Shown: one piece after another, positions 3,620 to 54,440 of the stretch
Numbering within the stretch: position 1 is the first letter of the stretch
How the letters are laid out: each line of letters begins with the position of its first letter
Sequence record: NC_073038.1
Direction: 5' to 3' (one strand)
From: Pseudomonas phage AAT-1
Length of the DNA: 57,599 nt
Made by a program: the position numbers and the translations under genes
Notes under the pieces: model-generated
What the model saw: only the letters and a program-made list of their open reading frames with translations
Told to the model about the DNA's origin: nothing
The model's database searches: none

Positions 3620-4510
3620 ATGTCCAAACAGTTCCGCCCCATGCTGTCCGCGACCGTGGCCGAGGTCGGCAAGCTCCGCTTCCCGCTGCTGGCTAGCCAC
3701 AAGCTGGACGGCATCCGCGCCCTGGTACGCGACGGCGTCGTCGTGTCCCGCAGCCTCAAGCCGATCCCCAACCGCCACGTGCAGGCCCTGTTCGGCCGCC
3801 CCGAGTACGAGGGCCTGGACGGCGAGCTCCTGGTCGGAGACCCGACCGACCCGACCGCATTCCTCGGTACGACCTCCGCGGTCATGAGCCGCGAAGGCGA
3901 GCCCGACGTGTACCTCCACGTCTTCGACGACGTGACCGAGCCACACCTACCCTTCCGCGACCGTCACGCTCGCCTGCAGGGTCGCCTGCAGGGTCGCCTG
4001 ACGCTGGTGGCGCAGGTGTACGTCGGCTCAGTGGCGGAGGTCGAGGAGTTCGAGCGCGAGGCCCTGGACGCCGGCCACGAGGGCATCATGCTGCGCTCGG
4101 CCGACAGCCCATACAAGTTCGGCCGCGGCACGCTGTCAAAGCAGGACCTGCTGAAGCTCAAGCGCTTTGAGGACGCGGAGGCCCGGGTCGTAGGCCTGGA
4201 GGAGCTGCTGCACAACTCGAACGAGGCGACAGTGGGCCTGCTCGGACAGACCGAGCGCGGCCACTCGAAGGCCGGCATGGTGGGCAAGGATACGCTCGGG
4301 GCCCTGCAGGTCGTCGGCGTCGGAGGGCGGTGGGACGGCGTCCGCTTCAACATCGGCTCCGGCTTCGACGCCGCCACCCGGCAGGCCATCTGGGACGCCG
4401 GCGACGCGTGGGTGGGCCGCCTGGTCAAGTTCAAGTTCTTCCCGCTCGGCTCCAAGGAGGCCCCGCGCTTCCCGATCTTCCTCGGCGAGCGCCACCCGGA
4501 CGACCTCTGA
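3620..4510 (+). CDS. ATP-dependent DNA ligase (small phage-type)
   Basis: 296 aa. KLDGIR adenylation motif I (KxDG) sits near the N-terminus. Size and layout resemble T7/Chlorella-virus ligases. AAGGAGAAG SD. Confidence 0.75.
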   Translation: MSKQFRPMLSATVAEVGKLRFPLLASHKLDGIRALVRDGVVVSRSLKPIPNRHVQALFGRPEYEGLDGELLVGDPTDPTAFLGTTSAVMSREGEPDVYLHVFDDVTEPHLPFRDRHARLQGRLQGRLTLVAQVYVGSVAEVEEFEREALDAGHEGIMLRSADSPYKFGRGTLSKQDLLKLKRFEDAEARVVGLEELLHNSNEATVGLLGQTERGHSKAGMVGKDTLGALQVVGVGGRWDGVRFNIGSGFDAATRQAIWDAGDAWVGRLVKFKFFPLGSKEAPRFPIFLGERHPDDL

Positions 4511-4591
4511 CGGGGAACCATCGTTGGCTTCCGACGTGGGCCGGGCGGTGTAGCATCGCGAGCTATACTGACCAACACCGAGGAGCTGACG

Positions 4592-6121
4592 ATGGCCGAC
4601 GGACCCAAGAAGAAGGCGACGGTTGCGACCCCGTCGTCTGCCTACCAGCGGATGTATCCGCGCTGGCGAATGATCGACGTCCTCCTGGGCGGCACTGAGG
4701 CCATGCGCGCGGCGGGCACCGAGTTCTTGCCCCAGTACGACAACGAGTCCAACAAGAACTATGCCGCGCGCCTGGCCCGCGCGACCCTGCTCAACATGAC
4801 CGAGCAGACGCTTGACACCATCGCAGGCAAGCCCTTCCGTGAGCAGGTGGTGCTTGGGGACGACGTGCCGCCACAGATCGAGGAGATGACCGAGGACGTG
4901 GACATGCAGGGCAACAACCTGCACGCGTTCTGCCGCACCTGGTTCCGCGAGGCCTGGGCGAAGGGCCTGTCCCACGTGCTCGTGGAGCACCCGACCCCGG
5001 AGGAGCGGGTCGACCCTGACACGGGCGAGACTCTCCCACGCACCCTGGCGGACGACCGCGCGGACGGGCTGCGCCCGTACTGGGTGCACGTCAAGCCCGA
5101 GTGCCTCATCGCAGCGTACTCTATGGTGGTCAACGGCCGCGAGGTCCTGACCCACGTCCGCATCCGCGAGACCACTGTGGAGCGGGTGGACTGGGACGAG
5201 GTAGAGGTGCAGCGCGTCCGCGTACTGGAGCCTGGACGTTGGGAGCTCTGGGCGCCGGACGATAAGGGCGAGGAGTGGCATGTCGAAGACGAGGGCTTCA
5301 CGGCCCTGGACTACGTGCCGCTTGTCACGTTCTACGCGGGCAAGCGCTCCGGCCTCATGGAGTGCAAGCCCCCGCTGACCGACCTGGCCCACCTCAACGT
5401 GGCCCACTGGCAGTCCTCGAGCGACCAGCGCAACGTCCTCACCGTGTCGCGCTTCCCGCTGCTTGCTGCCTCCGGCGTGCCCGCGGACCAGAAGGTGACG
5501 ATCGGCCCCAACAACTTCCTGACGACCGAGGCCGCGGACGGCAAGTGGTACTACGTCGAGCACACCGGCGCGGCTATCAAGGCCGGCGCAGAGGACCTCA
5601 CCTCGCTTGAGGACCAGATGGCCACCTACGGCGCCGAGTACATGCGGAAGCGCCCCGGGGACCAGACAGCTACTGGCAGGGCGCTAGACTCTGCGGAGTC
5701 CTCGTCCTACCTGGCGTCCACTGTGCGCGACTTCCAGGACTGCGTCGAGCTCGCCATGCAGTATACGGCCGACTGGCTTGGCCTCGACGAGGGCGGATCG
5801 GTGCGGATCAACGCGGACGTCGACCTCAGCGAGGCGGACGCGGCGGAGCTGGACGCGCTGCTCAAGATGCGTGCCCAGCGTGACATCTCCCGCAAGACGC
5901 TGCTCGACGAGATGCAGAAGCGCTCCGTGCTGTCCGACGACTTCGACGAGGAGGCGGACGCGGAGCTGCTAGCCGATGAGGGCAAGAATACCCTAGGCGA
6001 CATGTTCGGAGGCGGCAACGGCACTACCAGTCCGCTGCCGGCCGCCCCGGCCGCCCCGGCCGCGGGCCTGGAGGACGAGGACGAGGACTTGCCCACCAAC
6101 ACGCCCCCGGCTCAGGAGTAA
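4592..6121 (+). CDS. Portal protein (DUF4055-type)
   Basis: N-terminal YPRW...LLGGTEAMRAAG..FLP...NESN..Y..RL.RA pattern matches DUF4055 portals. Acidic C-terminus. Lies immediately upstream of the MuF-like gene, as in SPP1. Confidence 0.7.
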   Translation: MADGPKKKATVATPSSAYQRMYPRWRMIDVLLGGTEAMRAAGTEFLPQYDNESNKNYAARLARATLLNMTEQTLDTIAGKPFREQVVLGDDVPPQIEEMTEDVDMQGNNLHAFCRTWFREAWAKGLSHVLVEHPTPEERVDPDTGETLPRTLADDRADGLRPYWVHVKPECLIAAYSMVVNGREVLTHVRIRETTVERVDWDEVEVQRVRVLEPGRWELWAPDDKGEEWHVEDEGFTALDYVPLVTFYAGKRSGLMECKPPLTDLAHLNVAHWQSSSDQRNVLTVSRFPLLAASGVPADQKVTIGPNNFLTTEAADGKWYYVEHTGAAIKAGAEDLTSLEDQMATYGAEYMRKRPGDQTATGRALDSAESSSYLASTVRDFQDCVELAMQYTADWLGLDEGGSVRINADVDLSEADAAELDALLKMRAQRDISRKTLLDEMQKRSVLSDDFDEEADAELLADEGKNTLGDMFGGGNGTTSPLPAAPAAPAAGLEDEDEDLPTNTPPAQE

Positions 6122-6124
6122 CCC

Positions 6125-9100
6125 ATGGCCAAGACCGCGAACGAGGAGATTCTCGACGCTACGGTCCGCCACCAGATCAAGCTCCTGCGCTTCTCGCAGG
6201 GCGAGGCCAACATGGCCGCGTCCCTGTTGGCGGAGAGCGACGCGGAGCTGGTGGCGCTGATCCAGGCGGGCAACCTGACCGAGGCCAGCGAGGCGCGCCT
6301 GCGTGCCCTGCTGGCTGACGTGCGACGGCTCCGCTCCACCGTGGCCGAGCGTATCCAGTCGGAGCTCGAGGGCGACATGGAGGAGCTGGCGGCCACCGAG
6401 GCCGAGTGGGAGACGGCCATGCTGCAGGGCGCGACGCCCGTGGCTATGTCGTTCGCCTCCGTGCCTGTGACAACTCTCAAGGCCCTGTCGGCATCGCCCA
6501 TAAATGGTGTGCCGCTCGAGGGGTGGCTTGGCAAGATGGCGGTGAACGACGTCTCCCGTATAGAGCAGCAGCTACGCCTAGGCATCCTGGCCGGCGAGAC
6601 AAACGACCAGCTTGTGGCGCGCATCCGCGGCACGAAGGCGAACGGGTATAAAGACGGGGTGCTGGACATCACTCGGCGCGAGGCCGAGATGATCGCGCGC
6701 ACCGCGACCAACCATGTCTCGACGTCCGCACGGCAGGCCACCTGGGAGGCGAATGCCGACATCATCAGCGGCGTTCGGTGGGTGGCCACGCTCGATGGGC
6801 GGACCTCGCCTGTGTGCCAGTCCCGCGACGGCGAGGTATACTCCATCGACCGGGGACCGCGTCCGCCCGCGCACCCGAACTGCCGTTCAACCGTGGCGCC
6901 GGTGCTTGCCGGTGAGGAGATTGTCGGTGAGCGCCCGACCATCACTGACACCCGCACTCGTGCCCAGCGCGAGGTCGACTTCCGCGCCGAGGCGCGCGAG
7001 GCGGCAGGCGATAAGTGGAAGGGCATGAGCGAGGCGGAGCGCCGCGCGGCCATCAAGGCCCGCCGGGACAAGTGGGCTGACGAGAACATCGGCCAGGCAC
7101 CCACCTCCACGAACTACGAGAAGTGGCTACGCGGGCAGTCCAAGGAGTTCCAGGACGACGTACTTGGCAAGGGCAAGGCCCAGCTTTTCCGCGACGGCAT
7201 GCCTCTCGACAAGTTCGTGGACGAGAAGGGTAAACCGTACTCGCTGCAGCAGCTCAAGGCCGAGCTGGAGGGCGACAAGCTCAACGTGGTGCAGCCGGGC
7301 GTCGGCCTGAAGGCCAAGTCCCTGCTGCAGCAGGGCCTCTCCAACCAGCAGGTGCTTGACCAGATCAAGGCGGAGTACCCTGACGCCAGCACGTCGATCG
7401 CGTCGATCGCGTCCTACAAGTCGGAGCTGAACAAGGCCGGCGCACTGAGCCTGCCGGACGTCGGCAAGGTGCCGACCGGGGCCCTGGCGCAGGCCAAGAA
7501 CGTCAAGGCCGTGGTGGAGAACCTGGAGCAAGCACTACCGGCTAACGTCAAGCACGCCGTTGGCGGGCAGTGGTCCACGGTGGTCGAGGACCTGGACGGG
7601 GCGCCCGGGGTCTACGGCTACTACCAAGCCGGCAAGGGCGTGACGCTGAGCGGCAAGAAGCTGGCGGCGGTATCGACCGCGCAGGCCCAGCAGGCCGTGG
7701 CGCACGAGCTCGGGCACCTGCTGCACAAGCAGCACGACCTGCTACTCCCTGACGAAGTTCTGGCAGCCTTGAAGGCCTCGGCAAAGGGCCTGCCTCCGGA
7801 TGCCCGGAAGCTCTACTCGTACTATCTGAGCAGCGCAGACGAGCTCGTCGCTGAGGTCTACGCCCAGGCGCTCAGCCCGAGCGCGCTGACATCTCAGGGC
7901 CTGAGCGCCTTGGAGTTCAACAAGGCCTTTGGTCCTGCCATCGAGGCGGCCAAGAAGGCGATGGCGGACAAGTTCCCGATGCCTGCCGCGGCGGCCAAGA
8001 CGCCGCTGCCAGGCGGCCCCGTGTTACCCTTCGAGGTAGCTGGCAAGCACACGACGGTCGGCTCGCTGTCCAAGGCTCTGCTGCAACAGGGCATGCCGGA
8101 CGAGCAGGTGCTGCAGTCCGTGCTCGCTGAGTTCCCTGAGGCCAAGACCAAGCTGGCGTCCATCCAGAGCTACAAGTCGCAGCTCAAGAAGGAGGGCCTA
8201 CTGCCCAACAAGGCCTCCGGGCCGGTGGTGCAGCCGAAGGTCATCCCGGACGTGGCGCCAGTACCTGCCAGCGCAGAGGTAGCGGCAGCAGCGCCCGACG
8301 TCGTGGCCGCAGTTCCCTCGGCCGTGCAGCTGACGGCGGCCGAGCTCAAGGCCAAGGGGATGGAGCTACTCAAGCAGGGTGTGCTGGGCAACTCCGACGT
8401 GGCGACCACGCTCGACAAGATGTTCCCGCTTAACGCCGGGCAGGCGAAGCCCAGCACTGTGGCGACCTGGAAGAGCCTGTGGAAGAAGGCCGACCCGGAG
8501 GGATACGCGAAGGCCAGCGCCCTTGCGGAGAAGTCCACGGTCAAGGCAGCAGTCTCCGGCCCGGTAGCGCCGCCTAAGCTGCTAGGCCAGAAGCTTGGCG
8601 CCGTGTCGACTAAGGCCCTGGAGAAGGTCAAGTCGGTCGTCGCGGCTGGTGGCTCGGTGGACGAGGCGTACGCCGCCATGAAGTCGGTCTTCGGCTCAGT
8701 GCAGGAGCCCGGCGCCTCTGACCTGCTGGAGCTGGCCAAGTACCAGGTCGCGTCGGCCAAGGCCGCCGGTAAGCCCTACTTGGATGCCGCCTTCACTACG
8801 CCCAAGGGCTACGTCGCAAACCCCAAGATCGAGAGCTACGTCGCAAACCTGGACGCCAAGGGCAAGGCCGCGCTCGAGGCCTACAAAGAGGCCAAGGCCA
8901 AGGGCTTTGGCGTCGTCAAGACCAACAAGCTGGTGAAGGCCAAGGCGGGATACGAACCGTCGGCATCGGCCAAGGTGAAGTTGAAGGAGGCGGCTGACTA
9001 CGAGCTGACCAAGGCGGGCACGCCGATCCTCGAGCCGTACAGCCCGGCGGCCAAGGCAGCTCAGAAAGCCTCGCCGTCCGTCGCGCCGATACCGCCTACC

Positions 9101-9733
9101 GAGAAGGTGGACCTCACGCCAGTCCGTCCGGCTTCTACCCCACGCGACGGGCTGCCACCGCCTCCACGCTTCAACTCCCAGCAACGCGCTGCAGGAGTTC
9201 GCAAGTTCGCCGGCCGGGTCGAGACGTCCACGCTCAACTCCATGAACGCGCAGCAGCAGCGGCTCGGACTGCCCGAGCTAACGGCGGAGGAGGCGGCCGC
9301 GATTCGGTCGTATACTGGCAACACGTACCGGGCGCTGAACGACGCGCTCCGGTCGGGTAGGTACGCGTCAGACATGCACCTGCAGGCCTACGTAGATGCT
9401 GCCCAGCATGGACTCGCAAAGATGCCGAAGTTCGTGGGTCGGTCAGCCCGCGGTATGTCGTTTGGGGAGGCAGAGCTCAAGAAGGTGCTCGCGACCTACC
9501 GCAAGGGAGCTGTCGTCGAGGACTCGGCCTTCGTGTCGTCCTCGTACGGTGAGCAGGCGGCCTTCGGGGGCAATGTGTTCCTGCAGATCAACGGGAAGAC
9601 AGGGGTCAATATCTCCAGCTTCTCAAAGTACGGCGGCGAGCGTGAGGTACTGTTCATGCCTGGCACCCGCTTCAGGGTGGACGACGTGGTGCAGACCAAT
9701 GGTAAGTACGTGATAACTGTGACGGAGGTATAA
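6125..9733 (+). CDS. MuF-like (SPP1 gp7 family) minor head protein fused to a C-terminal C2/C3/VIP2-type mono-ADP-ribosyltransferase toxin domain
   Basis: 1202 aa. Mu-F motif VATLDGRTSPVCQSRDGEVY...HPNCRST. Middle part carries 3 copies of a roughly 35-aa helix-loop-helix module. C-terminus has LTAEEAAAIRSYTGNTYRALNDALR (NAD-binding helix), FVGRS (Arg), FVSSSYG (STS) and GGEREVLFMPGTRFRV (ExE ARTT loop plus EVL.PrGt.F.V). Confidence 0.8.
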   Translation: MAKTANEEILDATVRHQIKLLRFSQGEANMAASLLAESDAELVALIQAGNLTEASEARLRALLADVRRLRSTVAERIQSELEGDMEELAATEAEWETAMLQGATPVAMSFASVPVTTLKALSASPINGVPLEGWLGKMAVNDVSRIEQQLRLGILAGETNDQLVARIRGTKANGYKDGVLDITRREAEMIARTATNHVSTSARQATWEANADIISGVRWVATLDGRTSPVCQSRDGEVYSIDRGPRPPAHPNCRSTVAPVLAGEEIVGERPTITDTRTRAQREVDFRAEAREAAGDKWKGMSEAERRAAIKARRDKWADENIGQAPTSTNYEKWLRGQSKEFQDDVLGKGKAQLFRDGMPLDKFVDEKGKPYSLQQLKAELEGDKLNVVQPGVGLKAKSLLQQGLSNQQVLDQIKAEYPDASTSIASIASYKSELNKAGALSLPDVGKVPTGALAQAKNVKAVVENLEQALPANVKHAVGGQWSTVVEDLDGAPGVYGYYQAGKGVTLSGKKLAAVSTAQAQQAVAHELGHLLHKQHDLLLPDEVLAALKASAKGLPPDARKLYSYYLSSADELVAEVYAQALSPSALTSQGLSALEFNKAFGPAIEAAKKAMADKFPMPAAAAKTPLPGGPVLPFEVAGKHTTVGSLSKALLQQGMPDEQVLQSVLAEFPEAKTKLASIQSYKSQLKKEGLLPNKASGPVVQPKVIPDVAPVPASAEVAAAAPDVVAAVPSAVQLTAAELKAKGMELLKQGVLGNSDVATTLDKMFPLNAGQAKPSTVATWKSLWKKADPEGYAKASALAEKSTVKAAVSGPVAPPKLLGQKLGAVSTKALEKVKSVVAAGGSVDEAYAAMKSVFGSVQEPGASDLLELAKYQVASAKAAGKPYLDAAFTTPKGYVANPKIESYVANLDAKGKAALEAYKEAKAKGFGVVKTNKLVKAKAGYEPSASAKVKLKEAADYELTKAGTPILEPYSPAAKAAQKASPSVAPIPPTEKVDLTPVRPASTPRDGLPPPPRFNSQQRAAGVRKFAGRVETSTLNSMNAQQQRLGLPELTAEEAAAIRSYTGNTYRALNDALRSGRYASDMHLQAYVDAAQHGLAKMPKFVGRSARGMSFGEAELKKVLATYRKGAVVEDSAFVSSSYGEQAAFGGNVFLQINGKTGVNISSFSKYGGEREVLFMPGTRFRVDDVVQTNGKYVITVTEV

Positions 9734-9734
9734 G

Positions 9735-10022
9735 ATGGCAGGAGACACCGTGGACCGCAGCTTCGAGCCTGGGCCAGACTGGGATGACAAGACGTCCTTC
9801 GCCCCAGGAGTGCCGGACGACCCCGATGCTGTGCCAGAGCTGCTCTACCAGGTGCTGCTCGGCAAGGTCTTCACCCTTACGCGATGGCGCGACGGGTCCA
9901 CCGCACGCGGTGAGGTCGCGCTAGCCGACCTGGAGGCAGTCGCCGGCGGGCCGGTGGCTAAGGAGGGGTGGTACGATGCTCTCGGCAAGTATGTCGGGGC
10001 TGAGTTGCCCGGCTCTCTATGA
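9735..10022 (+). CDS. Hypothetical protein (candidate immunity/antagonist for the ART domain)
   Basis: 95 aa ORF directly downstream of the toxin-domain gene. GGAGG SD. Role inferred from position only. Confidence 0.4.
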   Translation: MAGDTVDRSFEPGPDWDDKTSFAPGVPDDPDAVPELLYQVLLGKVFTLTRWRDGSTARGEVALADLEAVAGGPVAKEGWYDALGKYVGAELPGSL

Positions 10023-10424: not shown

Positions 10425-11201
10425 ATGGACTTCGAGTTCCTGAAGAACCCCACCGTGGACAGCCTGGACAATGTGCCCGAGCAATTCCGCGGCCTGTACG
10501 CCGAGGGCGAGGGCGGTTACGTCCTGAACGACGGCTTCAAGGGTGTTGCCACCGCGGTGGACGGCCTGAACAAGTCCCTCAAGGCCGCGCGCCGTGATGC
10601 GGACGAGGCCAAGCGCAACCGCCCCGACGTGTCGGGCTTCGCCGCGGTCGGCCAGCTGCTCGGCATCGAGGGCGACGACGCCACGAACGCAGACGCCCTG
10701 CGTACGGCCGTCGAGAAGGTCATCTCCGAGTCCAAGGACGGCAAGGTCAACTGGGACAAGATGAAGAAGGACCTCGAGCGGGGATTCCAGGCCCAGCTGC
10801 AGACCAAGGACGGCGAGCTGCAGACCATGAACAAGACCCTGCAGAAGTACCTGGTGACCACGGCCGCCGTGCAGGCGATCGCCGGCCACAAGGGCGTGCC
10901 CGAGCTGCTGCTCCCGCATATCCAGGCCAAGACCAAGGTCATCAAGGAGGGCGAGGAGTACGTCGTCCGCGTGGTCGACGAGAGCGGCGACCCGCGCGGC
11001 AACGCCTCCGGCGGCTTCATGACCGTTGAGGACCTGGTCAAGGAGATGAAGGCCAGCCCGACCTTCGGCCGCGCCTTCGAGAGCGAGGCACCTGCCGGCT
11101 CGGGCGTCAAGCCCGGCTCGACCCAGCAGAAGCCTGCCCAGAAGGGCCGCGAGCTGTCGCCGACCGAGAAGATCGCCGCGGGCCTCGCGAAGCGTCGCTG
11201 A
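10425..11201 (+). CDS. Capsid scaffolding protein (putative)
   Basis: Starts MDFEFLKNP after a GAAGGAGAG SD (the ORF-track start at 10368 lacks an SD). Helical, charged composition. Sits between the head-morphogenesis and capsid genes. Confidence 0.55.
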   Translation: MDFEFLKNPTVDSLDNVPEQFRGLYAEGEGGYVLNDGFKGVATAVDGLNKSLKAARRDADEAKRNRPDVSGFAAVGQLLGIEGDDATNADALRTAVEKVISESKDGKVNWDKMKKDLERGFQAQLQTKDGELQTMNKTLQKYLVTTAAVQAIAGHKGVPELLLPHIQAKTKVIKEGEEYVVRVVDESGDPRGNASGGFMTVEDLVKEMKASPTFGRAFESEAPAGSGVKPGSTQQKPAQKGRELSPTEKIAAGLAKRR

Positions 11202-11276
11202 CCGTCAAGCCCCCACTGATTGCGGGAAACAGTCGTGGGGCAACCCTCCACCGTCCTGGCGGAGGACCTACAAGAA

Positions 11277-11303
11277 GGGGAGCCAACCGGCTCCCCTTTT
11301 CTC
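11277..11303. terminator. Bidirectional intrinsic terminator between scaffold (+) and NADAR (-) genes
   Basis: ggggagcc-aacc-ggctcccc followed by ttttctc on +. The hairpin also sits directly 3' of the minus-strand gene. Confidence 0.6.
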
Positions 11304-11811
11304 ATTCCGCGTGCGGGCAGGTCGAGCACGACATGGGCAGCATCTGCTCTCGCAGGTCAGTCAGCACCTGCCCAAGCCAGTTACGCCCGCGCCAGCGTTC
11401 ACGGTTGTGCACGCGCGGGTCGTCCTCCGCCAGGCCGACTCCCCAGATGACGTCGGTCGGGCTGGCCTCGACGAGCACGGTGCCTTCGGTGAGCAGCAGC
11501 TTGGCACGTAGCTTCGGGTCGCTCGAGAACTTCGCGAGGCTGGCCCGCATCACGACATCGCGCGCCACGGTCTCCCAGGTCCGGACGTCGAACCCGCGCA
11601 CCAGCTTGCCAAGGCGCTTCTGCTGCGCCGGGTCGTCCGTCGACATGATGGCCCTCAGGGCAGCGTCGTCCCCGAACAGCCGGGCCTTCTGAGCCATCAT
11701 GTACTGCTCGGCGCAGGAGTAGGTCACGCCGTCTACTACCATCGGGGACGGGTACCACTGGCTAAACACGCCGCCGTAGAACGGCGTGAACTTTTCACTA
11801 TTGTTGGGCAT
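11302..11811 (-). CDS. NADAR (YbiA-like, DUF1768) domain protein
   Basis: 169 aa. SCAEQYMMAQKARLFGD plus ...DVIWGVG... match the YbiA/NADAR fold signature. Confidence 0.75.
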   Translation of the reverse strand: MPNNSEKFTPFYGGVFSQWYPSPMVVDGVTYSCAEQYMMAQKARLFGDDAALRAIMSTDDPAQQKRLGKLVRGFDVRTWETVARDVVMRASLAKFSSDPKLRAKLLLTEGTVLVEASPTDVIWGVGLAEDDPRVHNRERWRGRNWLGQVLTDLREQMLPMSCSTCPHAE

Positions 11812-11867
11812 CTAAGTCCCCTCCAGGTTGTGGCGGCCTGGCCGACCGCCGATCTACAGTTTAACGC

Positions 11868-12740
11868 TCACAGACGGCGCGACGTAGCCGGTGCAGGCTG
11901 CACCTCGTGCACCGACACTGCCTGCAGGACGAAGAACTTCTCTCCGCGGCTTACTCCCGCAAGACGCTGAGCCTCGCGCTCGGCGTCACGGCACGAGGAC
12001 TGGACGGTGACCGGCGGCTTCTTGAGCTGGGGCTTGCCGTGTGGGCCACCCTTCATGCAGTCACCTGAGGCCACGAGGAAGAAGCGCTGGTCATCCAGTG
12101 TGCTGGTGTTGCGCTCACCGGCCCAGGACGTGCTCGCCGACCCGCCCGACGTCGAGGTCTTACCCAGCACGGCCTCCACAAGAGCGCGCCCGTCGTCAGT
12201 GAGGTCAGGCTGCCGGCCACCGTGGCCGACCGTGGCGAGGCCCTCCGCCACCAGGTGGGCGAGGTCGGGGCCCGACGTGCCGACCCTCAGCTCGTTCTCG
12301 TAGGTCCCGCGGTAGAGCGCGAGCAGGGCCATCATGCGGTTGGCGGTCATCTTCATGGTCTTCTCCTTGGTTGGTTCGCGGAAGTCGTCTGCTGGGTTAT
12401 TGAGCCCGAGGTGCGACAGCCGCATCTCGATGGCGATGTGGGTGCGGCCGTGTCGCTCGGCAAGCTCGGCCACTGGCATCCCGTGGCGACAGTATGCCTC
12501 CTTAAGGTCCCAATCCTCCTGCTGATTCCAGCGGGCCCCATTACGTGGGGCGGTGGAAGTGGGCGTGCCACCAGAGGTAGACCAACCCAGAAGCGGGGTC
12601 GCCGACGGCTTCGCACTCAGCGAAGGCGGCGTCCTCGGCTCTGGTCCTGAGGCAACCGGGTCTCCCGTGGTACGGGCGAAGAGCGACTCGTCAAAGTCGT
12701 ACTCGTCACCTATCCCGTTTACTAAATCCCAATCGGGCAT
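11868..12740 (-). CDS. Hypothetical protein with Myb/SANT-like HTH region
   Basis: 290 aa. WNQQEDWDLKEAY...GMPVAELAERHGRTHIAIEMRLSHLGL resembles a SANT/Myb-type helix-turn-helix. The rest is unassigned. Confidence 0.4.
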   Translation of the reverse strand: MPDWDLVNGIGDEYDFDESLFARTTGDPVASGPEPRTPPSLSAKPSATPLLGWSTSGGTPTSTAPRNGARWNQQEDWDLKEAYCRHGMPVAELAERHGRTHIAIEMRLSHLGLNNPADDFREPTKEKTMKMTANRMMALLALYRGTYENELRVGTSGPDLAHLVAEGLATVGHGGRQPDLTDDGRALVEAVLGKTSTSGGSASTSWAGERNTSTLDDQRFFLVASGDCMKGGPHGKPQLKKPPVTVQSSCRDAEREAQRLAGVSRGEKFFVLQAVSVHEVQPAPATSRRL

Positions 12741-12753
12741 ATCGACTCTCCTA

Positions 12754-13299
12754 TCAGATAGTTGTCAGGGCCATCCACTCGGGCTGATCGCCCAGGCGGT
12801 ACTCGGCGATCGCGGACTTCTCCACGCGGTAGTAGGCGCGGTAGGCGGCCACCGGATCGGCTTGGCGGTACTGCTCGGGCATCGCGAGGGCGAACGGCGT
12901 CATGGCGTCGGGCCGATCGGCGCAAGCTTTGACGAGCGCACGGGGCGGGTTGCGCAGGACGGGCAGCACGTCCCATGTCTTGTGGCGCTTCTTGGCGCAG
13001 TCGCCGTAGCGGCGCTGGTACTCGTGCAGGAGGGCTTCGAGCAACGAGCAAGTCCAGCGGTAATTGCCGACGGCCTCGCGCACCCACACGGCGCACGGGT
13101 GGTTGGCGTGGGTGGGGTGGTACACGCGCTGGCCTCGCACCTCGAAGCAGTTGCGGGCCTCAGAGTATACGGCCTCACCAAAGTGGGCGTGGGCCGTGCT
13201 GAGCAGCTGGGCCGTCTCGAGCACCATCTTGACGACGTGCTTGTCGCAATGGGCTCGGGCGGCCAGCCGCGGGTTGCGGTCTAGCACGAACAGGTTCAT
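12754..13299 (-). CDS. Hypothetical protein (conserved His/Cys: AHCDKH, HPCAVW)
   Basis: 181 aa with protein-like composition. No confident family assignment. Confidence 0.45.
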   Translation of the reverse strand: MNLFVLDRNPRLAARAHCDKHVVKMVLETAQLLSTAHAHFGEAVYSEARNCFEVRGQRVYHPTHANHPCAVWVREAVGNYRWTCSLLEALLHEYQRRYGDCAKKRHKTWDVLPVLRNPPRALVKACADRPDAMTPFALAMPEQYRQADPVAAYRAYYRVEKSAIAEYRLGDQPEWMALTTI

Positions 13300-13361
13300 C
13301 TTGTTCTCCTAGTTTGTTGCGCCAAGGGTATGATGCGCCCAACTTGGGGCGCGCCATGCCA

Positions 13362-13658
13362 TCAATTGAGGGGCTTGGTCATCAGCTCCTTGGCCTCGTC
13401 CCACGAGGCATTCCAAAGGTCGACCCCCCAGTCGGGCATGCCGTCCTCGTCGTCCGGCAGCGCCACCACGCCGAGCGAGGCGAGGGCCTCGTCCATCGTC
13501 ATATTGGCGTCGCAGTAGTCGTGGGAGTAGCAGACTCCGGCGATGGGCTTCTCGCGTTGTAGGCGGCAGACCTCGGCGAAGTTCTCCTCGCCAATGTCCT
13601 CGCGCAGCTGCTTGATGAAGGCATGAGCCACTTGGCTCGTGGTGGGCGTGTTGGTCAT
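13362..13658 (-). CDS. Hypothetical small protein (CYSHDYCDANM motif)
   Basis: Start chosen at MTNTPTT with a GAGGAG SD. The supplied ORF extends further 5' with a non-coding-like N-terminus. Confidence 0.45.
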   Translation of the reverse strand: MTNTPTTSQVAHAFIKQLREDIGEENFAEVCRLQREKPIAGVCYSHDYCDANMTMDEALASLGVVALPDDEDGMPDWGVDLWNASWDEAKELMTKPLN

Positions 13659-13668
13659 TGCGGTCTCC

Positions 13669-13881
13669 TCAGAGGTCAAGTAGGTCGAGGCCGTCGTCAT
13701 AGGACGGCAATTCCCAATGGTCGGTGTGCTTCTTGCGGCCGTCGGCCGTGATAGCGATGAGGGTAGATTCATCGCCCAGCGTGGGGTGCTCGTAGAGGTC
13801 CACGCCGTGCACCCGGCCGATGAGGGTCGGGTTCTTGGCAAGAAAAGCCTTTGCCTTGTCGGTAGTTGGCTTGTTGGTCAT
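13669..13881 (-). CDS. Hypothetical small protein
   Basis: Start at MTNKPTT with an AAGGAG SD. Its 5' end and RBS are near-identical to those of the gene at 13658. Confidence 0.45.
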   Translation of the reverse strand: MTNKPTTDKAKAFLAKNPTLIGRVHGVDLYEHPTLGDESTLIAITADGRKKHTDHWELPSYDDGLDLLDL

Positions 13882-13891
13882 TGCGGTCTCC

Positions 13892-14119
13892 TTAGAAGGC
13901 AGTTGCCTTGATGTCGTCGGCGTAGGACTTGTAGGGCAGGTAGTGGGCACGCATCTTCGCCATCGCGCCGCGCTCGGTTGTGGCGTTGCCGATGATCTTG
14001 GCTATCTCCTCGTCAGAGTAACACTCGACGACGGCGTCCCAGCCCTTCTCGTAGTTGCGGATGGCGTGGGCCTTGATGTGCTGCACCAGCTCGGCGGTGG
14101 TCTTGGTCTCTTGTGCCAT
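13892..14119 (-). CDS. Hypothetical small protein (first gene of leftward accessory operon)
   Basis: Start at MAQETKTT with a GGAG SD. Lies directly downstream of the conserved promoter element. Confidence 0.45.
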   Translation of the reverse strand: MAQETKTTAELVQHIKAHAIRNYEKGWDAVVECYSDEEIAKIIGNATTERGAMAKMRAHYLPYKSYADDIKATAF

Positions 14120-14141
14120 GTTCGTGCTCCAGTTGTTTGCG

Positions 14142-14185
14142 TCGATGGGGTAATAATAGCGGGAAGAAGGTATCACTGGAGCCCC
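14142..14185 (-). promoter_or_regulatory. Conserved leftward promoter-like element P1 (GGGGCTCC..N..CTATTATTACCCCATCGA on minus strand)
   Basis: One of 4 copies sharing a GGGRGCTCCC box, a TATWAT -10-like hexamer and a CCCATCGA box, each 20-45 nt upstream of a minus-strand start codon. Confidence 0.5.
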
Positions 14186-14400
14186 TTGTTTAGATTATTT
14201 TTTATATTTTCTAGGGATGATTGATAATCTAAACCTATCTAAACCACCATCTAAGGCAGCAGGCAGTCTGCAGTCCTTGTCCGGCAAGGCTATCTGGACC
14301 TTCTGGACCTTCTAGGGCATCTCTCGACGCCGTGGCCGACCGTGGCCGGCTTGTCGGGTGTTCGTTTTCCTGGCGCAACACGGTCGAAAAGGCTCGTGCG
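14186..14400. promoter_or_regulatory. AT-rich regulatory region A
   Basis: About 30% GC stretch in a 65% GC genome. TCTAAACC x2 at 14221-14241 (+). ATCTGGACC x2 (inverse of GGTCCAGAT) and CTAGGGCATCT at 14290-14325. CGTGGCCGA direct repeats at 14326-14348. A roughly 40-bp block at 14351-14392 is homologous (inverted) to 54262-54300. Confidence 0.5.
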
Positions 14401-14684
14401 GCCCAAAATCAGCCTAAGGCCTTGGTGCGCAAGGCTTTTCGTGTACGAGCCTGGTTTTTACGGGGTCCAGAAGGCTCGTATAGCCACAACGTTGGCATAG
14501 GTTCATGGGGTTACGGGCCGCACGGGCTGCAGCATTATCCGCTCCATAGCGTGCGAGCGCGGACGACGTCCGAGCCCGCGCTCGCTGACCCGGCAGAGGC
14601 GTGACGCCCGGCAAGGGGTCGAATCGTCGGGCGATCCGGCACCAAACCAAGCACCACTTTCAACCTCTGTCTAGGAGAAATACC

Positions 14685-15614
14685 ATGGCTTCTGTAACCC
14701 TTGCCGAATCGGCGAAGCTGGCGCAGGACGAACTCGTCGCCGGCGTCATCGAGAACGTCATCACCGTCAACGAGATGTTCGAGCTGCTGCCCTTCGACGG
14801 CATCGATGGCAACGCTCTCGCCTACAACCGCGAGAACGCCCTGGGCGACGTCCAGATGGCTGGCGTCGGCTCGACCATCACCGCCAAGGCCGCCGCGACC
14901 TTCACGCAGGTGACCTCCACCCTGACCACCATCATCGGCGACGCCGAGGTTAACGGTCTGATCCAGGCCACTCGCTCCGGCGACGGCAACGACCAGAAGG
15001 CGGTCCAGATCGCCTCCAAGGCGAAGAGCTGCGGCCGCAAGTACCAGGACCAGATGATTAACGGCGATGGCACTGGCGCCAACATGACCGGCATGCTCGG
15101 CCTCGTTGCCGCGGGCCAGACCATCTCCGCCAATAACGGCGCCGCGAACGGCGCGGCCCTGTCCTTCGAGGACCTGGACGCGCTGATCGACCTGGTGACC
15201 GACAAGGACGGCCAGGTGGACTACCTGATGATGAACGGCCGCACCCGCCGTGCCTACCTGGCGCTGCTCCGCGCCCTGGGCGGCACCTCGCCGGGTGACA
15301 TCTACACCATGGTCTCCGGCCGTCAGGTGCCGGCCTACCGCGGCATCCCGATCTTCCGCAACGACTGGATCCCCATCAACCAGACCACCGGTACCAGCAC
15401 CAACACCACCACGGTGTTCGCCGGCACCCTGGACGACGGCTCCCGTAGCCATGGCATCGCCGGCCTGACCGCCGAGCGCATGGCTGGCATCAACATCAAG
15501 GAGGTCGGTGAGAAGGAAGACGCGGACGAGTCCATCACTCGCGTGGTGTGGTACTGCGGCCTGGCGCTCTTCAACGAGAAGGGCCTTGCCGCGCTCGAGG
15601 GCGTCACCAACTAA
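14685..15614 (+). CDS. Major capsid protein (HK97-like)
   Basis: 309 aa from the ATG after a TAGGAGAAATACC SD. Typical major-capsid composition and position, followed by a partial terminator. Confidence 0.75.
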   Translation: MASVTLAESAKLAQDELVAGVIENVITVNEMFELLPFDGIDGNALAYNRENALGDVQMAGVGSTITAKAAATFTQVTSTLTTIIGDAEVNGLIQATRSGDGNDQKAVQIASKAKSCGRKYQDQMINGDGTGANMTGMLGLVAAGQTISANNGAANGAALSFEDLDALIDLVTDKDGQVDYLMMNGRTRRAYLALLRALGGTSPGDIYTMVSGRQVPAYRGIPIFRNDWIPINQTTGTSTNTTTVFAGTLDDGSRSHGIAGLTAERMAGINIKEVGEKEDADESITRVVWYCGLALFNEKGLAALEGVTN

Positions 15615-15688: not shown

Positions 15689-16153
15689 ATGGCATCCGTC
15701 ACCCAGAAGTTCGTCCTGGTCGGCCCGCACGCTGGCAAGACCATGAACGTCAACGGACACGAGTTCGTCGACGGCGAGTACACTTTCCAGGGCAGCGCCG
15801 AGCAGGTCGCAGTGCTGGCCCGCGTCTTCAAGCGCTATGCGGCCTTGCCGGCCGAGCACGCAGAACTTGCTGAGCTCAAAGCCAAGCAGGCTGCTCCGGC
15901 TGCTCCGGCTGCTCCGGCTGCTCCGGCTGCTCCGGCTGCTCCGGCTGCTCCGGCTGCTCCGGCTGCAGGCAAGCCCACTCTTGGCGAGGCGATTGGCGCG
16001 CTTGACCCCGAGAACGACAAGCACTGGACCTCCAACAACCTACCGGCCCTCGACGTGCTTGAGGAGCTGACCGGCAAGAAGGTCGCTCGCAACGAAGTCG
16101 ACGCCGTGGCCGAGGGCTACACCCGCGCCAAGGCTCGCGCTGCTAAGCAGTAA
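15689..16153 (+). CDS. Hypothetical head-associated protein with (Ala-Ala-Pro)x8 linker
   Basis: 154 aa. N-terminal globular part, then an AAPAAP... linker, then a C-terminal domain. GAAGGAGAAAAGAG SD. Confidence 0.5.
   Translation: MASVTQKFVLVGPHAGKTMNVNGHEFVDGEYTFQGSAEQVAVLARVFKRYAALPAEHAELAELKAKQAAPAAPAAPAAPAAPAAPAAPAAPAAGKPTLGEAIGALDPENDKHWTSNNLPALDVLEELTGKKVARNEVDAVAEGYTRAKARAAKQ
15890..15961 (+). repeat. Tandem 9-bp repeat (gctgctccg x8) encoding (AAP)8
   Basis: Perfect tandem copies visible directly in the sequence. Confidence 0.9.
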
Positions 16154-33515: not shown

Positions 33516-33560
33516 TCGATGGGTTCCATTATACGCCTTCTGCGGGGTTCGGGAGCCCCA
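33516..33560 (-). promoter_or_regulatory. Conserved leftward promoter-like element P3
   Basis: Minus strand reads gggGCTCCCgaaccccgcagaaggcgTATAATggaaCCCATCGA. Confidence 0.5.
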
Positions 33561-34372: not shown

Positions 34373-34407
34373 TCGATGGAGTAATAATAGATGGAAAGCG
34401 GACTGCT
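34373..34407 (-). promoter_or_regulatory. Conserved leftward promoter-like element P2
   Basis: Minus strand reads GGGGGCTCCCagcagtccgctttccatCTATTATTACtCCATCGA. Confidence 0.5.
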
Positions 34408-34484
34408 GGGAGCCCCCTCTAGCAACTTTTTTTTAGACCAGCAAAACATAAGGGGAGACCGAAGTCTCCCCTTATGATATTAGC

Positions 34485-39410: not shown

Positions 39411-39902
39411 TCACTCGAGGAAGCTCTGGCCCTCGCCGCTGGCCTGCTCGCCACCGGTCTCGCCAGCCGCCTGGGCCTTCTCGGCTTCCTTCTTGGCCTT
39501 GGCCTCGGCCTTCTCAGCGGCCTTGGCCTCCTTGGCGGCCTGCTTCTCGGCTTCCTTCTTGGCCTTGGCCTCGGCCTTCTCGGCCTCCTTCTTGGCCTTG
39601 GCCTCGGCCTTCTCGGCCTCCTTGGCGGCCTTGGCCTCAGCCTTGGCGTCCGCCTTCAGCTCGCGGGCGGTCGGCACGTTCTCGCCGTCGCCGCGCAGCT
39701 TGTTGCGGTACCAGTTGATGCTGGCCATGGAGGTCTTGGCCTCCGGGAACTGCTCCTTCACCGCGGCGAGGACCTCCTCGTTGGTCTTGCCCTCGCGGAT
39801 CAGGGTCTTGGCGACGTCGCCGACGCCCGGGCCCTTCGGCTCCTTGGTCTGCTCGGCCGCGCCCTCGGCGCCCTCGGTCTGGGTGTTCAGCTCTTCGCTC
39901 AT
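39411..39902 (-). CDS. Lys/Ala/Glu-rich (histone H1-like) protein with N-terminal helix-loop-helix module
   Basis: N-terminus EEVLAAVKEQFPEAKTSMASINWYRNKLRG. Then (AKAEAKAKKEAEK)n encoded by about 39-bp tandem DNA repeats. Confidence 0.5.
   Translation of the reverse strand: MSEELNTQTEGAEGAAEQTKEPKGPGVGDVAKTLIREGKTNEEVLAAVKEQFPEAKTSMASINWYRNKLRGDGENVPTARELKADAKAEAKAAKEAEKAEAKAKKEAEKAEAKAKKEAEKQAAKEAKAAEKAEAKAKKEAEKAQAAGETGGEQASGEGQSFLE
39470..39655 (-). repeat. Imperfect ~39-bp tandem repeats (ggccttggcctcggccttctcggcctccttctt...)
   Basis: Visible directly in the sequence. They encode the KAEAKAK repeats. Confidence 0.7.
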
Positions 39903-46229: not shown

Positions 46230-46273
46230 TCGATGGGTTTATTATAGTGGGAGAACCTTGGCATGGGAGCCCT
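46230..46273 (-). promoter_or_regulatory. Conserved leftward promoter-like element P4
   Basis: Minus strand reads GAGGGCTCCCatgccaaggttctcccaCTATAATAAaCCCATCGA. Confidence 0.5.
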
Positions 46274-51299: not shown

Positions 51300-51503
51300 C
51301 TTCGTTGAGCGGGTTGTGGGACGCTCATGATACGGCCGGCCGGCGCATTGCGGAGCCGTCGAACGGGAGGCGCCGGCCGGGAGCCCTGCGAATCTGGGCC
51401 TCTAGGCCTTTCCAAGTACGCTGGCACGACCGACGGTCCCAGAACGCAATGCGTCGCGGCATCATGGCCTTCCCGACCGACAGAACACCCGAAAGGAGCA
51501 CCC
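51300..51503. promoter_or_regulatory. Divergent promoter/operator region between the leftward early operon and the rightward RHH-primase operon
   Basis: Inverted 9-mers GCGCATTGCG (51344) and CGCAATGCGT (51447), each adjacent to a start of divergent transcription. Confidence 0.4.
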
Positions 51504-54099: not shown

Positions 54100-54440
54100 C
54101 GAGGGACACGATCTAGGCCTTGGAAGGTCCAGATGCCCTAGATTGGGTTGGTCTGCTGGAGGAGCGTCTAGGACTAACGGGCCCTCAAACAGGCCAGGCT
54201 CAGACCAGGCTCAGCTAGAAAAAGCATTGCAGATCAAGGCCTTGTGCTCAGTCTGAGGCTGAAACGGACTCGACGAGCCTTTTGCGCTGTGTTGTCCCAG
54301 GAAAACGAAAAACGACATATTTTGACGACAAGAAAGCACGACAGCAACTCGGTCCAGATGGCTTAGATGCCTTAGATTGCTTATTTAAGTTATTGATTTT
54401 ATTGTACTTTTTAATCTAAACCTTAATCTAAACCTATAAA
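54100..54440. promoter_or_regulatory. Regulatory region B (motif-rich, AT-rich 3' part), homologous to region A
   Basis: GGTCCAGATGCCCTAGAT at 54109. A block at 54262-54300 is about 85% identical to the reverse complement of 14351-14392. GGTCCAGATGGCTTAGATGCCTTAGATTG at 54350. TAATCTAAACCTTAATCTAAACC at 54408. Confidence 0.5.

Follow-up and report, generated by a model that had tools for sequence, protein, structure and literature searches.

Why should the scaffold and major capsid genes of a phage, both read rightward, be held apart by a block of genes read leftward, and what would an enzyme of the NADAR family be doing at the end of that block? The question is posed by Pseudomonas phage AAT-1 (sequence record NC_073038.1), a complete Pamexvirus genome of 57,599 bp and 65.9% GC, which was analysed at full length and is called the window below. 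A preliminary description of this DNA, made from the letters alone, had reported a six-gene leftward block between the two rightward genes; all six open reading frames (ORFs) are present, at or close to where it had placed them, and span 11302-14119 on the minus strand, from a promoter-like element (P1) to a bidirectional hairpin. The reading that we prefer, with a probability of about 0.45, is that this cassette is an old, clade-wide YbiA operon and that its NADAR would erase the marks made by the phage's own MuF-linked ADP-ribosyltransferase (ART), acting as an enzymatic immunity protein. The activities of the proteins, the transcription of the operon and its timing, the target of the transferase and the link between NADAR and transferase are all inferred in this scheme.

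NADAR and the transferase of the phage itself

The genes on which the argument turns are the following.
6125-9733, plus strand: MuF-family head protein, 1202 aa, with a C-terminal R-S-ExE ART domain at aa 1043-1200 (nt ~9251-9724)
9735-10022, plus strand: 95-aa ORF, phrog_20070 at 2e-57, starting 2 nt after the MuF-ART stop codon
10425-11201, plus strand: scaffold gene, phrog_206, flanking the block on one side
11302-11811, minus strand: NADAR (YbiA-type), 169 aa, last gene of the operon

The presence of a YbiA-like NADAR gene, as first described, is borne out by two family profiles at scores far above their cut-offs: Pfam PF08719 (167.8 bits against 35.1, residues 14-157 aligning with profile positions 11-162 of 163) and TIGR02464, 'riboflavin biosynthesis intermediates N-glycosidase', which is the best NCBIfam match (160.3 bits against 73.7). 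Matches in the PDB are 8BAU, a Phytophthora NADAR, and 2B3W. The database name of the gene is misleading, 'GTP cyclohydrolase II' being the label in the annotation of phage phiH1. In the alignment with 8BAU, residues E35, K42, W79, E115, D120 and W123 of the phage protein stand opposite E43, K50, W89, E125, D130 and W133 of PnNADAR; further pairs are R79/K69 and R93/A83, with R84 adjacent. Among the PnNADAR residues, E43 and K50 are the catalytic glutamate and lysine of the core helix, and the Trp, Asp and Trp bind ADP-ribose (PMC11543638). A loss of catalytic residues, which the preliminary description had named as the outcome that would speak against it, was not found, all of them being present. 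The protein is assigned to the YbiA subfamily because the last strand carries a glutamate (E115), which makes it neither DarG1-like (Asp) nor of the T4 gp30.3 type (His). It also departs from the DarG1-like pattern (BC4488) in that the domain begins at residue 14, with no basic N-terminal extension. Its neighbours are p290, the 290-aa product of the preceding operon gene, and the scaffold gene, and there is no adjacent DarT. The enzyme most likely removes N-linked ADP-ribose.

A possible source of such marks is encoded nearby. The MuF-family head protein contains a Phage_Mu_F domain (7.5e-14, aa 145-257) and, at aa 1043-1200, a domain matching both ART (6e-15) and ADPrib_exo_Tox (1.2e-11) in Pfam; the PDB matches of the latter domain are the type VI effector Tre1 (6DRE/6DRH, 4e-17) and XopAI (1e-9), and its R, STS and ExE motifs are conserved. 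The phiH1 annotation calls the head protein 'type III effector XopAI'. An N-terminal MuF part joined to a C-terminal toxin domain is the architecture of the MuF polymorphic toxins, a class that comes with immunity proteins (Jamet et al. 2017, PMC5576092; Bxa, PMC11699363). The transferase domain lies 1.6 kb upstream of NADAR, with the scaffold gene in between. The preliminary description, which gave NADAR one kind of target, ADP-ribosylation of the DarT type or by other defence systems of the host, was right about the enzyme but had overlooked this transferase, which offers an alternative target.

The two genes keep company across the phages surveyed. A tblastn search with the ART domain returned 38 phage records, and the NADAR matches at 56% identity or more are the same 38, namely 37 from the cassette-bearing clade plus ZQG1. 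Two members of the clade, PaMx74 and DoCa5, have no NADAR, and their MuF proteins, of 395-397 aa, are without the transferase domain; the outgroup phages Ab18, YuA and FP1 likewise have short head-morphogenesis genes (~1.2 kb as annotated) and neither cassette nor NADAR at the locus. In ZQG1 the cassette is remodelled, only a truncated relative of p290 being left, yet both NADAR and transferase are kept. Among contigs from IMG/VR, both genes are found in two and neither in four non-redundant lineages (clustered at 97%). No isolate record and none of these contigs has NADAR but lacks the transferase. A single deletion cannot have removed both genes, because the scaffold gene between them is retained.

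Known systems provide a frame for this association. For Bxa, a prophage MuF-ART toxin, neutralisation is brought about by the small binding protein Bsi and by the hydrolase BAH (PMC11699363). AAT-1 resembles it in the transferase fused C-terminally to MuF, in the small ORF directly downstream, as Bsi is, and in the co-occurrence of an ADP-ribose hydrolase nearby. NADARs are known as antitoxins of ART toxins in the DarT1-NADAR (PMC11543638) and YarT-YbiA (PMC11125620) pairs, the latter being the closer analogy in that a YbiA-type NADAR is here proposed to serve an ART toxin, and Tre1-Tri1 (PDB 6DRE/6DRH) may be seen as a further parallel of an ART toxin with a hydrolase as immunity. There are differences from these systems. 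The hydrolase is a NADAR and not an ARH-family protein, and its gene is not beside that of the toxin but belongs to a convergent operon at a distance of 1.6 kb; the phage appears lytic and is not a prophage; and one contig has the toxin domain without NADAR. The 95-aa ORF was present in every ART-bearing genome checked, that contig included, and is absent from PaMx74 and DoCa5 with their short MuF proteins. By analogy with Bsi it is a candidate for a binding-type immunity protein.

We would accordingly picture the following course of events. The operon would be transcribed leftward from the phage-specific P1 and transcription stopped at the bidirectional hairpin; the MuF transferase would add ADP-ribose in the producing cell; the YbiA-type NADAR would strip these self-made marks in the same cell, with the product of the 95-aa ORF working alongside it as immunity; and NADAR might also reverse ADP-ribosylation made by the host. 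If so, an unexplained 'YbiA' gene becomes, through its presence in the same 38 isolate records as the transferase, one half of a testable toxin/eraser pair, and one that concerns a branch of NADARs set aside as housekeeping by recent phage work.

Several observations weigh against this reading. In the IMG/VR contig L040 the transferase domain is intact and NADAR is replaced by an HNH/EndoVII-like ORF, so that a genome with the transferase can do without NADAR. (The replacement, at 3759-4439 of L040, is a 226-aa endonuclease ORF, phrog_3322 at 1e-33.) The association comprises few independent events, the two genes having been gained together once, lost together once or twice and retained together once, and with a spacing of 1.6 kb linkage contributes to it. 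Both the ExE motif of the transferase and its closest relationship, with the arginine-specific Tre1, suggest an arginine target, and NADAR activity has been shown on nucleobase-linked ADP-ribose only, not on arginine-ADP-ribose. NADAR and transferase belong to convergent transcription units, probably of different timing classes. The YbiA-like branch is regarded as (riboflavin) housekeeping by Johannesman et al. 2025 (PMC11825919). As for the rest of the operon, a promoter scan gave no minus-strand sigma-70 site at P1, which has no -35 element, and DNA binding by p290 is read from weak matches (E 0.06-0.6).

The principal alternative is the one that the preliminary description had put forward, in which the cassette is a counter-defence module. 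NADAR would be an orphan antitoxin like AdfN, stripping ADP-ribose from guanines of phage DNA that had been modified by DarT1-type or other transferases of the host, and the remaining genes would serve anti-defence or host takeover. AdfN is defined by function, as an enzyme that takes ADP-ribose off DNA modified by DarT1 and lets the phage grow again on hosts with DarTG1, and diverse phage NADARs (T4, Bas32, Bas60) neutralise DarTG1 (PMC11825919). Activity on guanine-ADP-ribose is common to the NADAR subfamilies and was seen in vitro for E. coli YbiA as well (PMC11125620), and NADARs also reverse the guanine-ADP-ribose made by the ARTC enzyme ScARP (PMC11543638). The AAT-1 protein is, like AdfN, phage-encoded and free-standing, with its catalytic residues intact and no DarT adjacent. 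The promoter type is shared between the cassette and the leftward region of non-structural genes, small acidic orphans (p98, isoelectric point 4.2) and variable slots (p181, p75) resemble anti-defence loci, and the cassette is dispensable in two metagenomic contigs. The type of enzyme fits less well. With glutamate in its last strand it is YbiA/TIGR02464-like, whereas T4 AdfN has His and DarG1 Asp, and Bas32 and Bas60 fall in non-YbiA branches; it is not DarG1-like, T4-like, archaeal-like or of the Bas60 type. E. coli YbiA, moreover, did not rescue DarT1 toxicity in vivo (PMC11125620), and the one phage NADAR that Johannesman et al. 2025 linked with the YbiA group is only distantly related to it (PMC11825919). 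NADAR is stable, its identity being 66-74% among phages whose hosts belong to five genera, which is unlike a host-specific counter-defence gene, and its presence follows the transferase of the phage rather than the genus of the host. For DarTG1 in Pseudomonas aeruginosa, a literature search gave a generic mention in a review only. What stands of the original proposal, then, is a genuine NADAR with its catalytic residues, of a type other than the DarG1-like and T4 AdfN enzymes shown to counter DarT1. We regard counter-defence as plausible, though less likely than not. The self-directed eraser is placed slightly ahead of it because NADAR occurs in phages whose MuF protein ends in an ADP-ribosyltransferase domain, and both may hold together.

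An old operon with its own predicted control elements

The remaining genes of the block and its flanks are arranged as follows.
11270-11300, both strands: bidirectional intrinsic-terminator-like hairpin (stem 11277-11284 / 11289-11296, loop 11285-11288), flanked by an A-tract and a T-tract
11868-12740, minus strand: p290, 290 aa
12754-13299, minus strand: p181, 181 aa
13362-13658, minus strand: p98, 98 aa
13669-13881, minus strand: p70, 70 aa
13892-14119, minus strand: p75, 75 aa, first gene of the operon
14141-14212, minus strand: promoter-like element P1, with an A/T-rich tract (14186-14212), a GGGGCTCC box (14178-14185), a -10-like TATTAT (14153-14158) and CCCATCGAC (14141-14149)
14685-15614, plus strand: major capsid gene, phrog_212, flanking the block on the other side
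33528-33558, 34384-34415 and 46241-46272, minus strand: three other copies of the P1 type (A/T tract, GGGGCTCCC, N17-18, TATWAT, N3, CCATCGA)

The gaps between the cassette genes are 10-62 nt. Five of the six genes have PHROG family matches, and the annotations of phiH1 and PaMx28 show the same six leftward genes in the interval between scaffold and major capsid gene. The 6.5 kb around the block align at 97.5% identity with Pseudomonas phage phiH1; for PA_LZ02 and phiH2 the figure is 95-97%, and for PaMx28 it is 90%. (In the database entry of phiH2 the scaffold protein is mislabelled 'glutamate synthase small chain'.) The GC content of the cassette genes is 0.59-0.67, against 0.66 for the genome, and their GC content at third codon positions (GC3) is 0.78-0.88, against 0.85-0.93 in the neighbouring structural genes and 0.59 in the adjacent non-coding stretch.

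The block is bounded by what appear to be its own control elements. The hairpin at 11277-11296 has the form GGGGAGCC-N4-GGCTCCCC with U-rich tails on both sides, and although it was not picked up by a simple terminator scan, each strand is predicted to fold with about -25 kcal/mol (z = -3.1 and -4.4 relative to shuffled sequences). In PaMx28, DLP4 and AXL1, the annotations place a terminator on both strands at the homologous site. The bidirectional terminator proposed at 11277-11303 thus finds support both in the strong folding of each strand and in its annotated homologues, and the hairpin is predicted to terminate the scaffold operon, read rightward, as well as the cassette, read leftward. 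At the other end, P1 consists of an A/T-rich tract followed by GGGGCTCC-N19-TATTAT-N3-CCCATCGAC. A search of the window for GGGCTCC-N17-20-TATWAT gave four matches, at 14153 (P1), 33528, 34384 and 46241, each of them on the minus strand, against an expectation of 0.00; the other three fall, by offset to phiH1, in the leftward region of replication and nucleotide-metabolism genes, and two of the three are preceded by terminator hairpins. Upstream of the cassette, P1 is kept in 12 aligned phages and was matched at nine cassette-flanking loci, and its position is that of the promoters predicted in DLP4 and AXL1. A canonical sigma-70 promoter was considered and rejected for P1: the -10 is good, but there is no TTGACA-like -35 and no TGn extension. 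From this pattern we infer that the cassette is transcribed leftward from a phage-specific promoter type, made up of an A/T tract, a GGGGCTCCC box and TATWAT. The earlier view of a divergent, independently transcribed block of non-structural genes with a private promoter at 14142-14185 agrees well with the conserved promoter-like element and the hairpin. For p75, the start codon is most likely the ATG at 14119 (75 aa), because the alternative GTG at 14176 lies upstream of the -10 and the ORF read from it overlaps the -10 element; the phiH1 annotation uses a GTG start of this kind, overlapping the promoter.

As to the age of the block, gene presence was counted with a tblastn matrix over 18 genomes, greedy ORF clustering having been dropped as too noisy in high-GC DNA. 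The counts are p290 18, p98 17, NADAR 16, p70 14, p181 6 and p75 3. NADAR is 66-98% identical across its genomes and p70 62-100%; between Pseudomonas and Xanthomonas phages the values are 66-74% for NADAR and 62-84% for p70, which puts both near the conservation of the scaffold protein (73-82%), and p290 evolves faster (36-42%). In the INPHARED collection p290 was found in 41/41 records of the subclade, from phages of Pseudomonas, Xanthomonas, Stenotrophomonas, Janthinobacterium and Variovorax, and this subclade matches 'cluster 4' of the Bradleyvirinae (PMC11946847). The comparison of relatives that the preliminary description had called for thus finds the block in all subclade records, and in none of the outgroups Ab18, YuA and FP1, in which 140-195 nt separate the scaffold gene from the capsid gene and nothing is read leftward in between. 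Since the outgroups have adjacent scaffold and capsid genes and every subclade record carries p290, the block is an insertion that dates to the base of the subclade. It can also be lost: in the IMG/VR contigs L021 and L034 the whole cassette is gone and only endonuclease remnants are left, so the block is dispensable in at least one metagenomic lineage. In L034 the remnants, of an HNH/EndoVII-like ORF, lie at 4431-4931 in place of the entire cassette.

Whether such a block should be called a moron, as the preliminary description had it, depends on the feature considered. It is divergent, is an insertion relative to the outgroups and has, by prediction, its own promoter and terminator; but it is neither sporadic nor recent, its composition is that of the genome, and among its genes only p181 (6/18) and p75 (3/18) come and go, the core genes being present in 14-18 of the 18 genomes. 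On sequence grounds, we consider it an old, fixed, compositionally ameliorated accessory operon with two variable slots, p181 and p75, and it provides an example of how a stable core may persist while other genes are swapped (an endonuclease V-like gene, small orphans, the HNH/EndoVII-like replacement).

Nor is its content new, as had been supposed, since the block is the 'YbiA operon' already published for the same phage group. According to the DLP4 paper (Peters et al. 2019, PMC6469090), where the operon was named and its genes were called morons, it has a lower GC content and a single promoter and is syntenic with Xoo-sp2, PaMx28 and AAT-1; an E. coli ybiA mutant was complemented for its swarming defect by DLP4 ybiA, which is transcribed in the lysogen. 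The AXL1 paper (McCutcheon et al. 2022, PMC9206674) describes the same operon as having no known role in phage replication, and synteny with PaMx28 is pointed out in both papers. AAT-1 shares with DLP4 and AXL1 the order scaffold, cassette, capsid, the leftward orientation, the single upstream promoter and the bidirectional terminator, with NADAR at 72-74% identity, p290 at ~41% and homologous p98 and p70; it differs in p181 and p75, which are carried in the Pseudomonas aeruginosa branch and absent from DLP4 and AXL1, these having other small ORFs instead. The function guesses taken from I-TASSER in those publications (phenol hydrolase, anti-sigma antagonist) found no support here. The operon itself is therefore already in the literature, and the finding as first worded adds little. 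The link with the MuF transferase, the promoter family and the conserved capsid leader described below do not appear in the passages of the DLP4 and AXL1 papers that were consulted, and it is the co-occurrence of NADAR with the transferase and the leader that are worth pursuing.

The DLP4 results suggest a different role altogether, lysogenic conversion, in which expression from the prophage alters swarming or the stress response and YbiA acts as an N-glycosidase of riboflavin intermediates. The complementation and the transcription in the lysogen speak for it, as do the TIGR02464 match and a block with what look like its own promoter and terminator. For the phages considered here such a role is unlikely because no relative of p290 occurs in 185,579 species-representative bacterial and archaeal genomes and no integrase is annotated in phiH1, nor is a CI-type repressor. 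Furthermore, the cassette matches the genome in composition and is fixed throughout the subclade, swarming did not change in the natural host of DLP4, and the co-occurrence of NADAR with the MuF transferase would be left unexplained. It is the least probable of the explanations that we considered.

The other proteins of the cassette

The cassette genes do not form one pathway. The preliminary description had singled out p181 as a His/Cys protein, and its His/Cys set is indeed invariant (H21, H64, H67 and H106, with C69 nearly so); the structure check that it had suggested for 12754-13299 refines the identity, p181 having the fold of T4 endonuclease V (DenV, pyrimidine-dimer glycosylase). The Pfam score for Pyr_excise, PF03013, stays below the gathering cut-off (21.4 bits against 23.0), and many p181 homologues do carry PF03013; relatives in cyanophages are annotated as pyrimidine-dimer glycosylases (PMC9964418). 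PDB sequence searches with p181 gave nothing significant, and an hhalign comparison of the p181 family with T4 endonuclease V gave a weak C-terminal match only. In a weak global alignment, for which the T4 query sequence was approximate, the invariant E28 stands opposite T4 E23, and D19 and H21 opposite D14 and H16; p181 also shares the C-terminal P-x-W motif. It differs from the T4 enzyme in its low sequence identity (~9%), in a 40-residue beta insertion, in the His/Cys-rich set, which T4 lacks, and in its N-terminus, an invariant Met-Asn in place of Thr2 with its N-terminal alpha-amino nucleophile. We consider p181 to be probably a DNA-lesion glycosylase and, from its distribution, a lineage-specific addition to the cassette.

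The three small proteins described at first, p98, p70 and p75, are all present as ORFs. The acidic p98 (phrog_21393 at 5e-55) belongs to a clade-restricted family of 27 clusters and has no Pfam, NCBIfam or PDB match, and p70, also an orphan with no informative match, belongs to phrog_11770 (7e-36). The two genes have in common a ribosome-binding site and their first seven codons (MTNxPTT), both beginning GGAGACCGCAATGACCAAC. This similarity is part of a 67-nt direct repeat of 76% identity (13639-13705 / 13862-13928) that takes in, at p98 and at p70, the stop, the ribosome-binding site and the first codons. The repeat may serve the two genes as a common translation-initiation element, or it may mark a recombination joint by which genes are swapped. 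Paralogy of p70 and p98 was considered and rejected, their similarity being confined to the first ~20 residues. p75 has no family match in Pfam, PHROG or NCBIfam; its GC3 is 0.87 and, of the 18 genomes, it is present only in the window, phiH1 and PaMx28.

The Myb/SANT-like helix-turn-helix that had been noted in p290 is supported by a Myb-like bundle in a structural model and by a match to c-Myb R3, but this support is weak. The protein falls in phrog_18209 (3e-138), with a weak match to phrog_323, 'transcriptional regulator' (6.5e-6). Its family is clade-restricted, with 37 clusters in 5.8 billion proteins and 22 representatives of the C-terminal domain, and no prophage copies were detected in the bacterial and archaeal genomes mentioned above. 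In an AlphaFold2 model (domain pLDDT ~75-87, pTM 0.29), residues 1-60 are disordered, as well as variable in sequence, and are followed by three folded parts: residues 66-115 as a Myb-like three-helix bundle, 128-192 as a winged helix and 200-280 as an orphan alpha/beta domain. The remote-homology and structure comparisons proposed earlier for 11868-12740 gave consistent matches, all of them weak: Foldseek returned winged-helix proteins of the MarR, PadR and RosR types (probability 0.94-1.0, with E at least 0.06), and a profile search returned AspA and c-Myb R3 weakly. PDB sequence searches with p290 gave nothing significant, and a Pfam scan of all p290 homologues gave no match. The model suggests that p290 is probably a clade-specific DNA-binding regulator with two predicted helix-turn-helix domains.

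The repeat array and the probable capsid leader

Between P1 and the capsid start lie ~500 nt of non-coding DNA that are more conserved than the flanking genes and consist of two parts.
14224-14318, no strand assigned: TCTARG / CYTAGA repeat array, six or seven copies, in the divergent control region upstream of P1
14319-14684, plus strand: conserved structured non-coding region, ~370 nt, upstream of the capsid gene; probably the capsid mRNA leader

The TCT cores of the array are invariant across 17-24 phages, and no comparable cluster occurs elsewhere in the window. The array is a candidate for protein binding. A looser cluster of five TCTARG/CYTAGA motifs within 260 nt is found at 54112-54371, and a CCTAGAGGCCCAGAT pair stands beside a GGGCTCCC box at ~51386-51420; either may be a further site of the same putative array-binding factor.

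In the leader, alignment columns are 71-72% identical on average, and phages of five host genera have stretches of up to 21-29 nt in common without any variation; one such stretch, ATCGTCGGGCGATCCGGCACC, is present in all 24 non-redundant sequences. The leader was found in 21 IMG/VR contigs as well as in the 41 records that have p290, and it is kept in L021 and L034. ZQG1 carries a diverged 3' half, and one motif of the leader, GATCCGGCAC, is present even in YuA and FP1. The motif GGGYGATCCGGCAC stands ~50-65 nt upstream of the capsid start (~14630-14645 in the window, ~4440-4460 in YuA, ~4445-4460 in FP1) and is conserved even in the Rabinowitzvirinae, which are without the cassette and the rest of the leader. 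Consensus folding (alifold) gave z of about -7 relative to column shuffles. For 39 local pairs, 96.5% of the cells are paired, against 31-44% when the partners are slid by 1-3 columns, and helix 4 contains three compensatory pairs. Folding energy did not decide the strand, z being about -7 on both, but the G.U count did: read on the plus strand, 147/936 cells are G.U pairs that the minus strand would turn into A.C, and the structure is therefore assigned to the rightward RNA. We consider it probably a structured leader of the capsid mRNA.

No Rfam family was matched at gathering thresholds over the whole window, or at E <= 1 over 11150-14750, and ARAGORN found no tRNA or tmRNA in the leader. 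Several more specific ideas were tried and dropped. The tRNA-like or tmRNA-like 3' end suggested by GGCACCA was given up on the ARAGORN result. Candidate sigma-54 promoters (GGCAC-N-AAGCA at ~14640 and CTGGYGC at ~14400), inspected by eye and prompted by the annotated -24/-12 promoters of YuA, have a GG-GC spacing of 12-14 nt or lack the -12 in many phages. Long-range pairing of GGGGUUAC with capsid codons 4-6 (GUAACCC) is not supported, a change of GUA to GUU in 9/24 sequences being without compensation. Pairing of UUUCCUG with AGGAGA, which would cover the capsid Shine-Dalgarno sequence, was predicted on one alignment and not on a larger one, both sides being invariant, and is put forward as speculation.

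The neighbourhood of p290, array and leader invites the reading that the cassette is at heart a regulatory module, in which p290 binds the TCTARG array and times transcription of the capsid operon, the other genes being passengers. p290 is the sole cassette gene found in 18/18 genomes and leaves a truncated relative even in ZQG1; it has two helix-turn-helix domains in the model; the array between P1 and the capsid leader is unique and conserved; and p290 and leader occur in the same 41 records. Co-occurrence within one monophyletic clade is not functional evidence, however, and the assignment of DNA binding comes with the E-values given above. L021 and L034, moreover, have leader and TCTARG repeats without p290 and the cassette, and p290 is therefore not needed there for capsid expression. 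We hold this reading to be quite improbable. A more far-reaching proposal, to which we would give a small chance, has two separate parts: the 370-450 nt from P1 to the capsid start codon would represent a new class of cis-regulatory RNA in which UUUCCUG pairs with the capsid Shine-Dalgarno sequence and gates capsid translation, with the TCTARG array and p290 as its DNA-level half, and NADAR would be the first NADAR-class enzymatic immunity protein for a virion-packaged MuF ADP-ribosyltransferase, in a lytic phage. Falling in no known family, the leader is in any case a candidate for the study of late-gene control in phages used against Pseudomonas, Stenotrophomonas and Xanthomonas.

Two repeats were noted elsewhere in the window. 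Downstream of the capsid gene, 8-9 tandem 9-nt units (GGCTGCTCC) at 15880-15978, inside the ORF 15689-16153, encode an (AAP)n run in its protein product. On the plus strand at 39444-39674, within a region of leftward genes, there is a long imperfect repeat with a 33-nt period (GCCTTGGCCTCGGCCTTCTCGGC...), which probably encodes a Lys/Glu/Ala-rich repeat protein.

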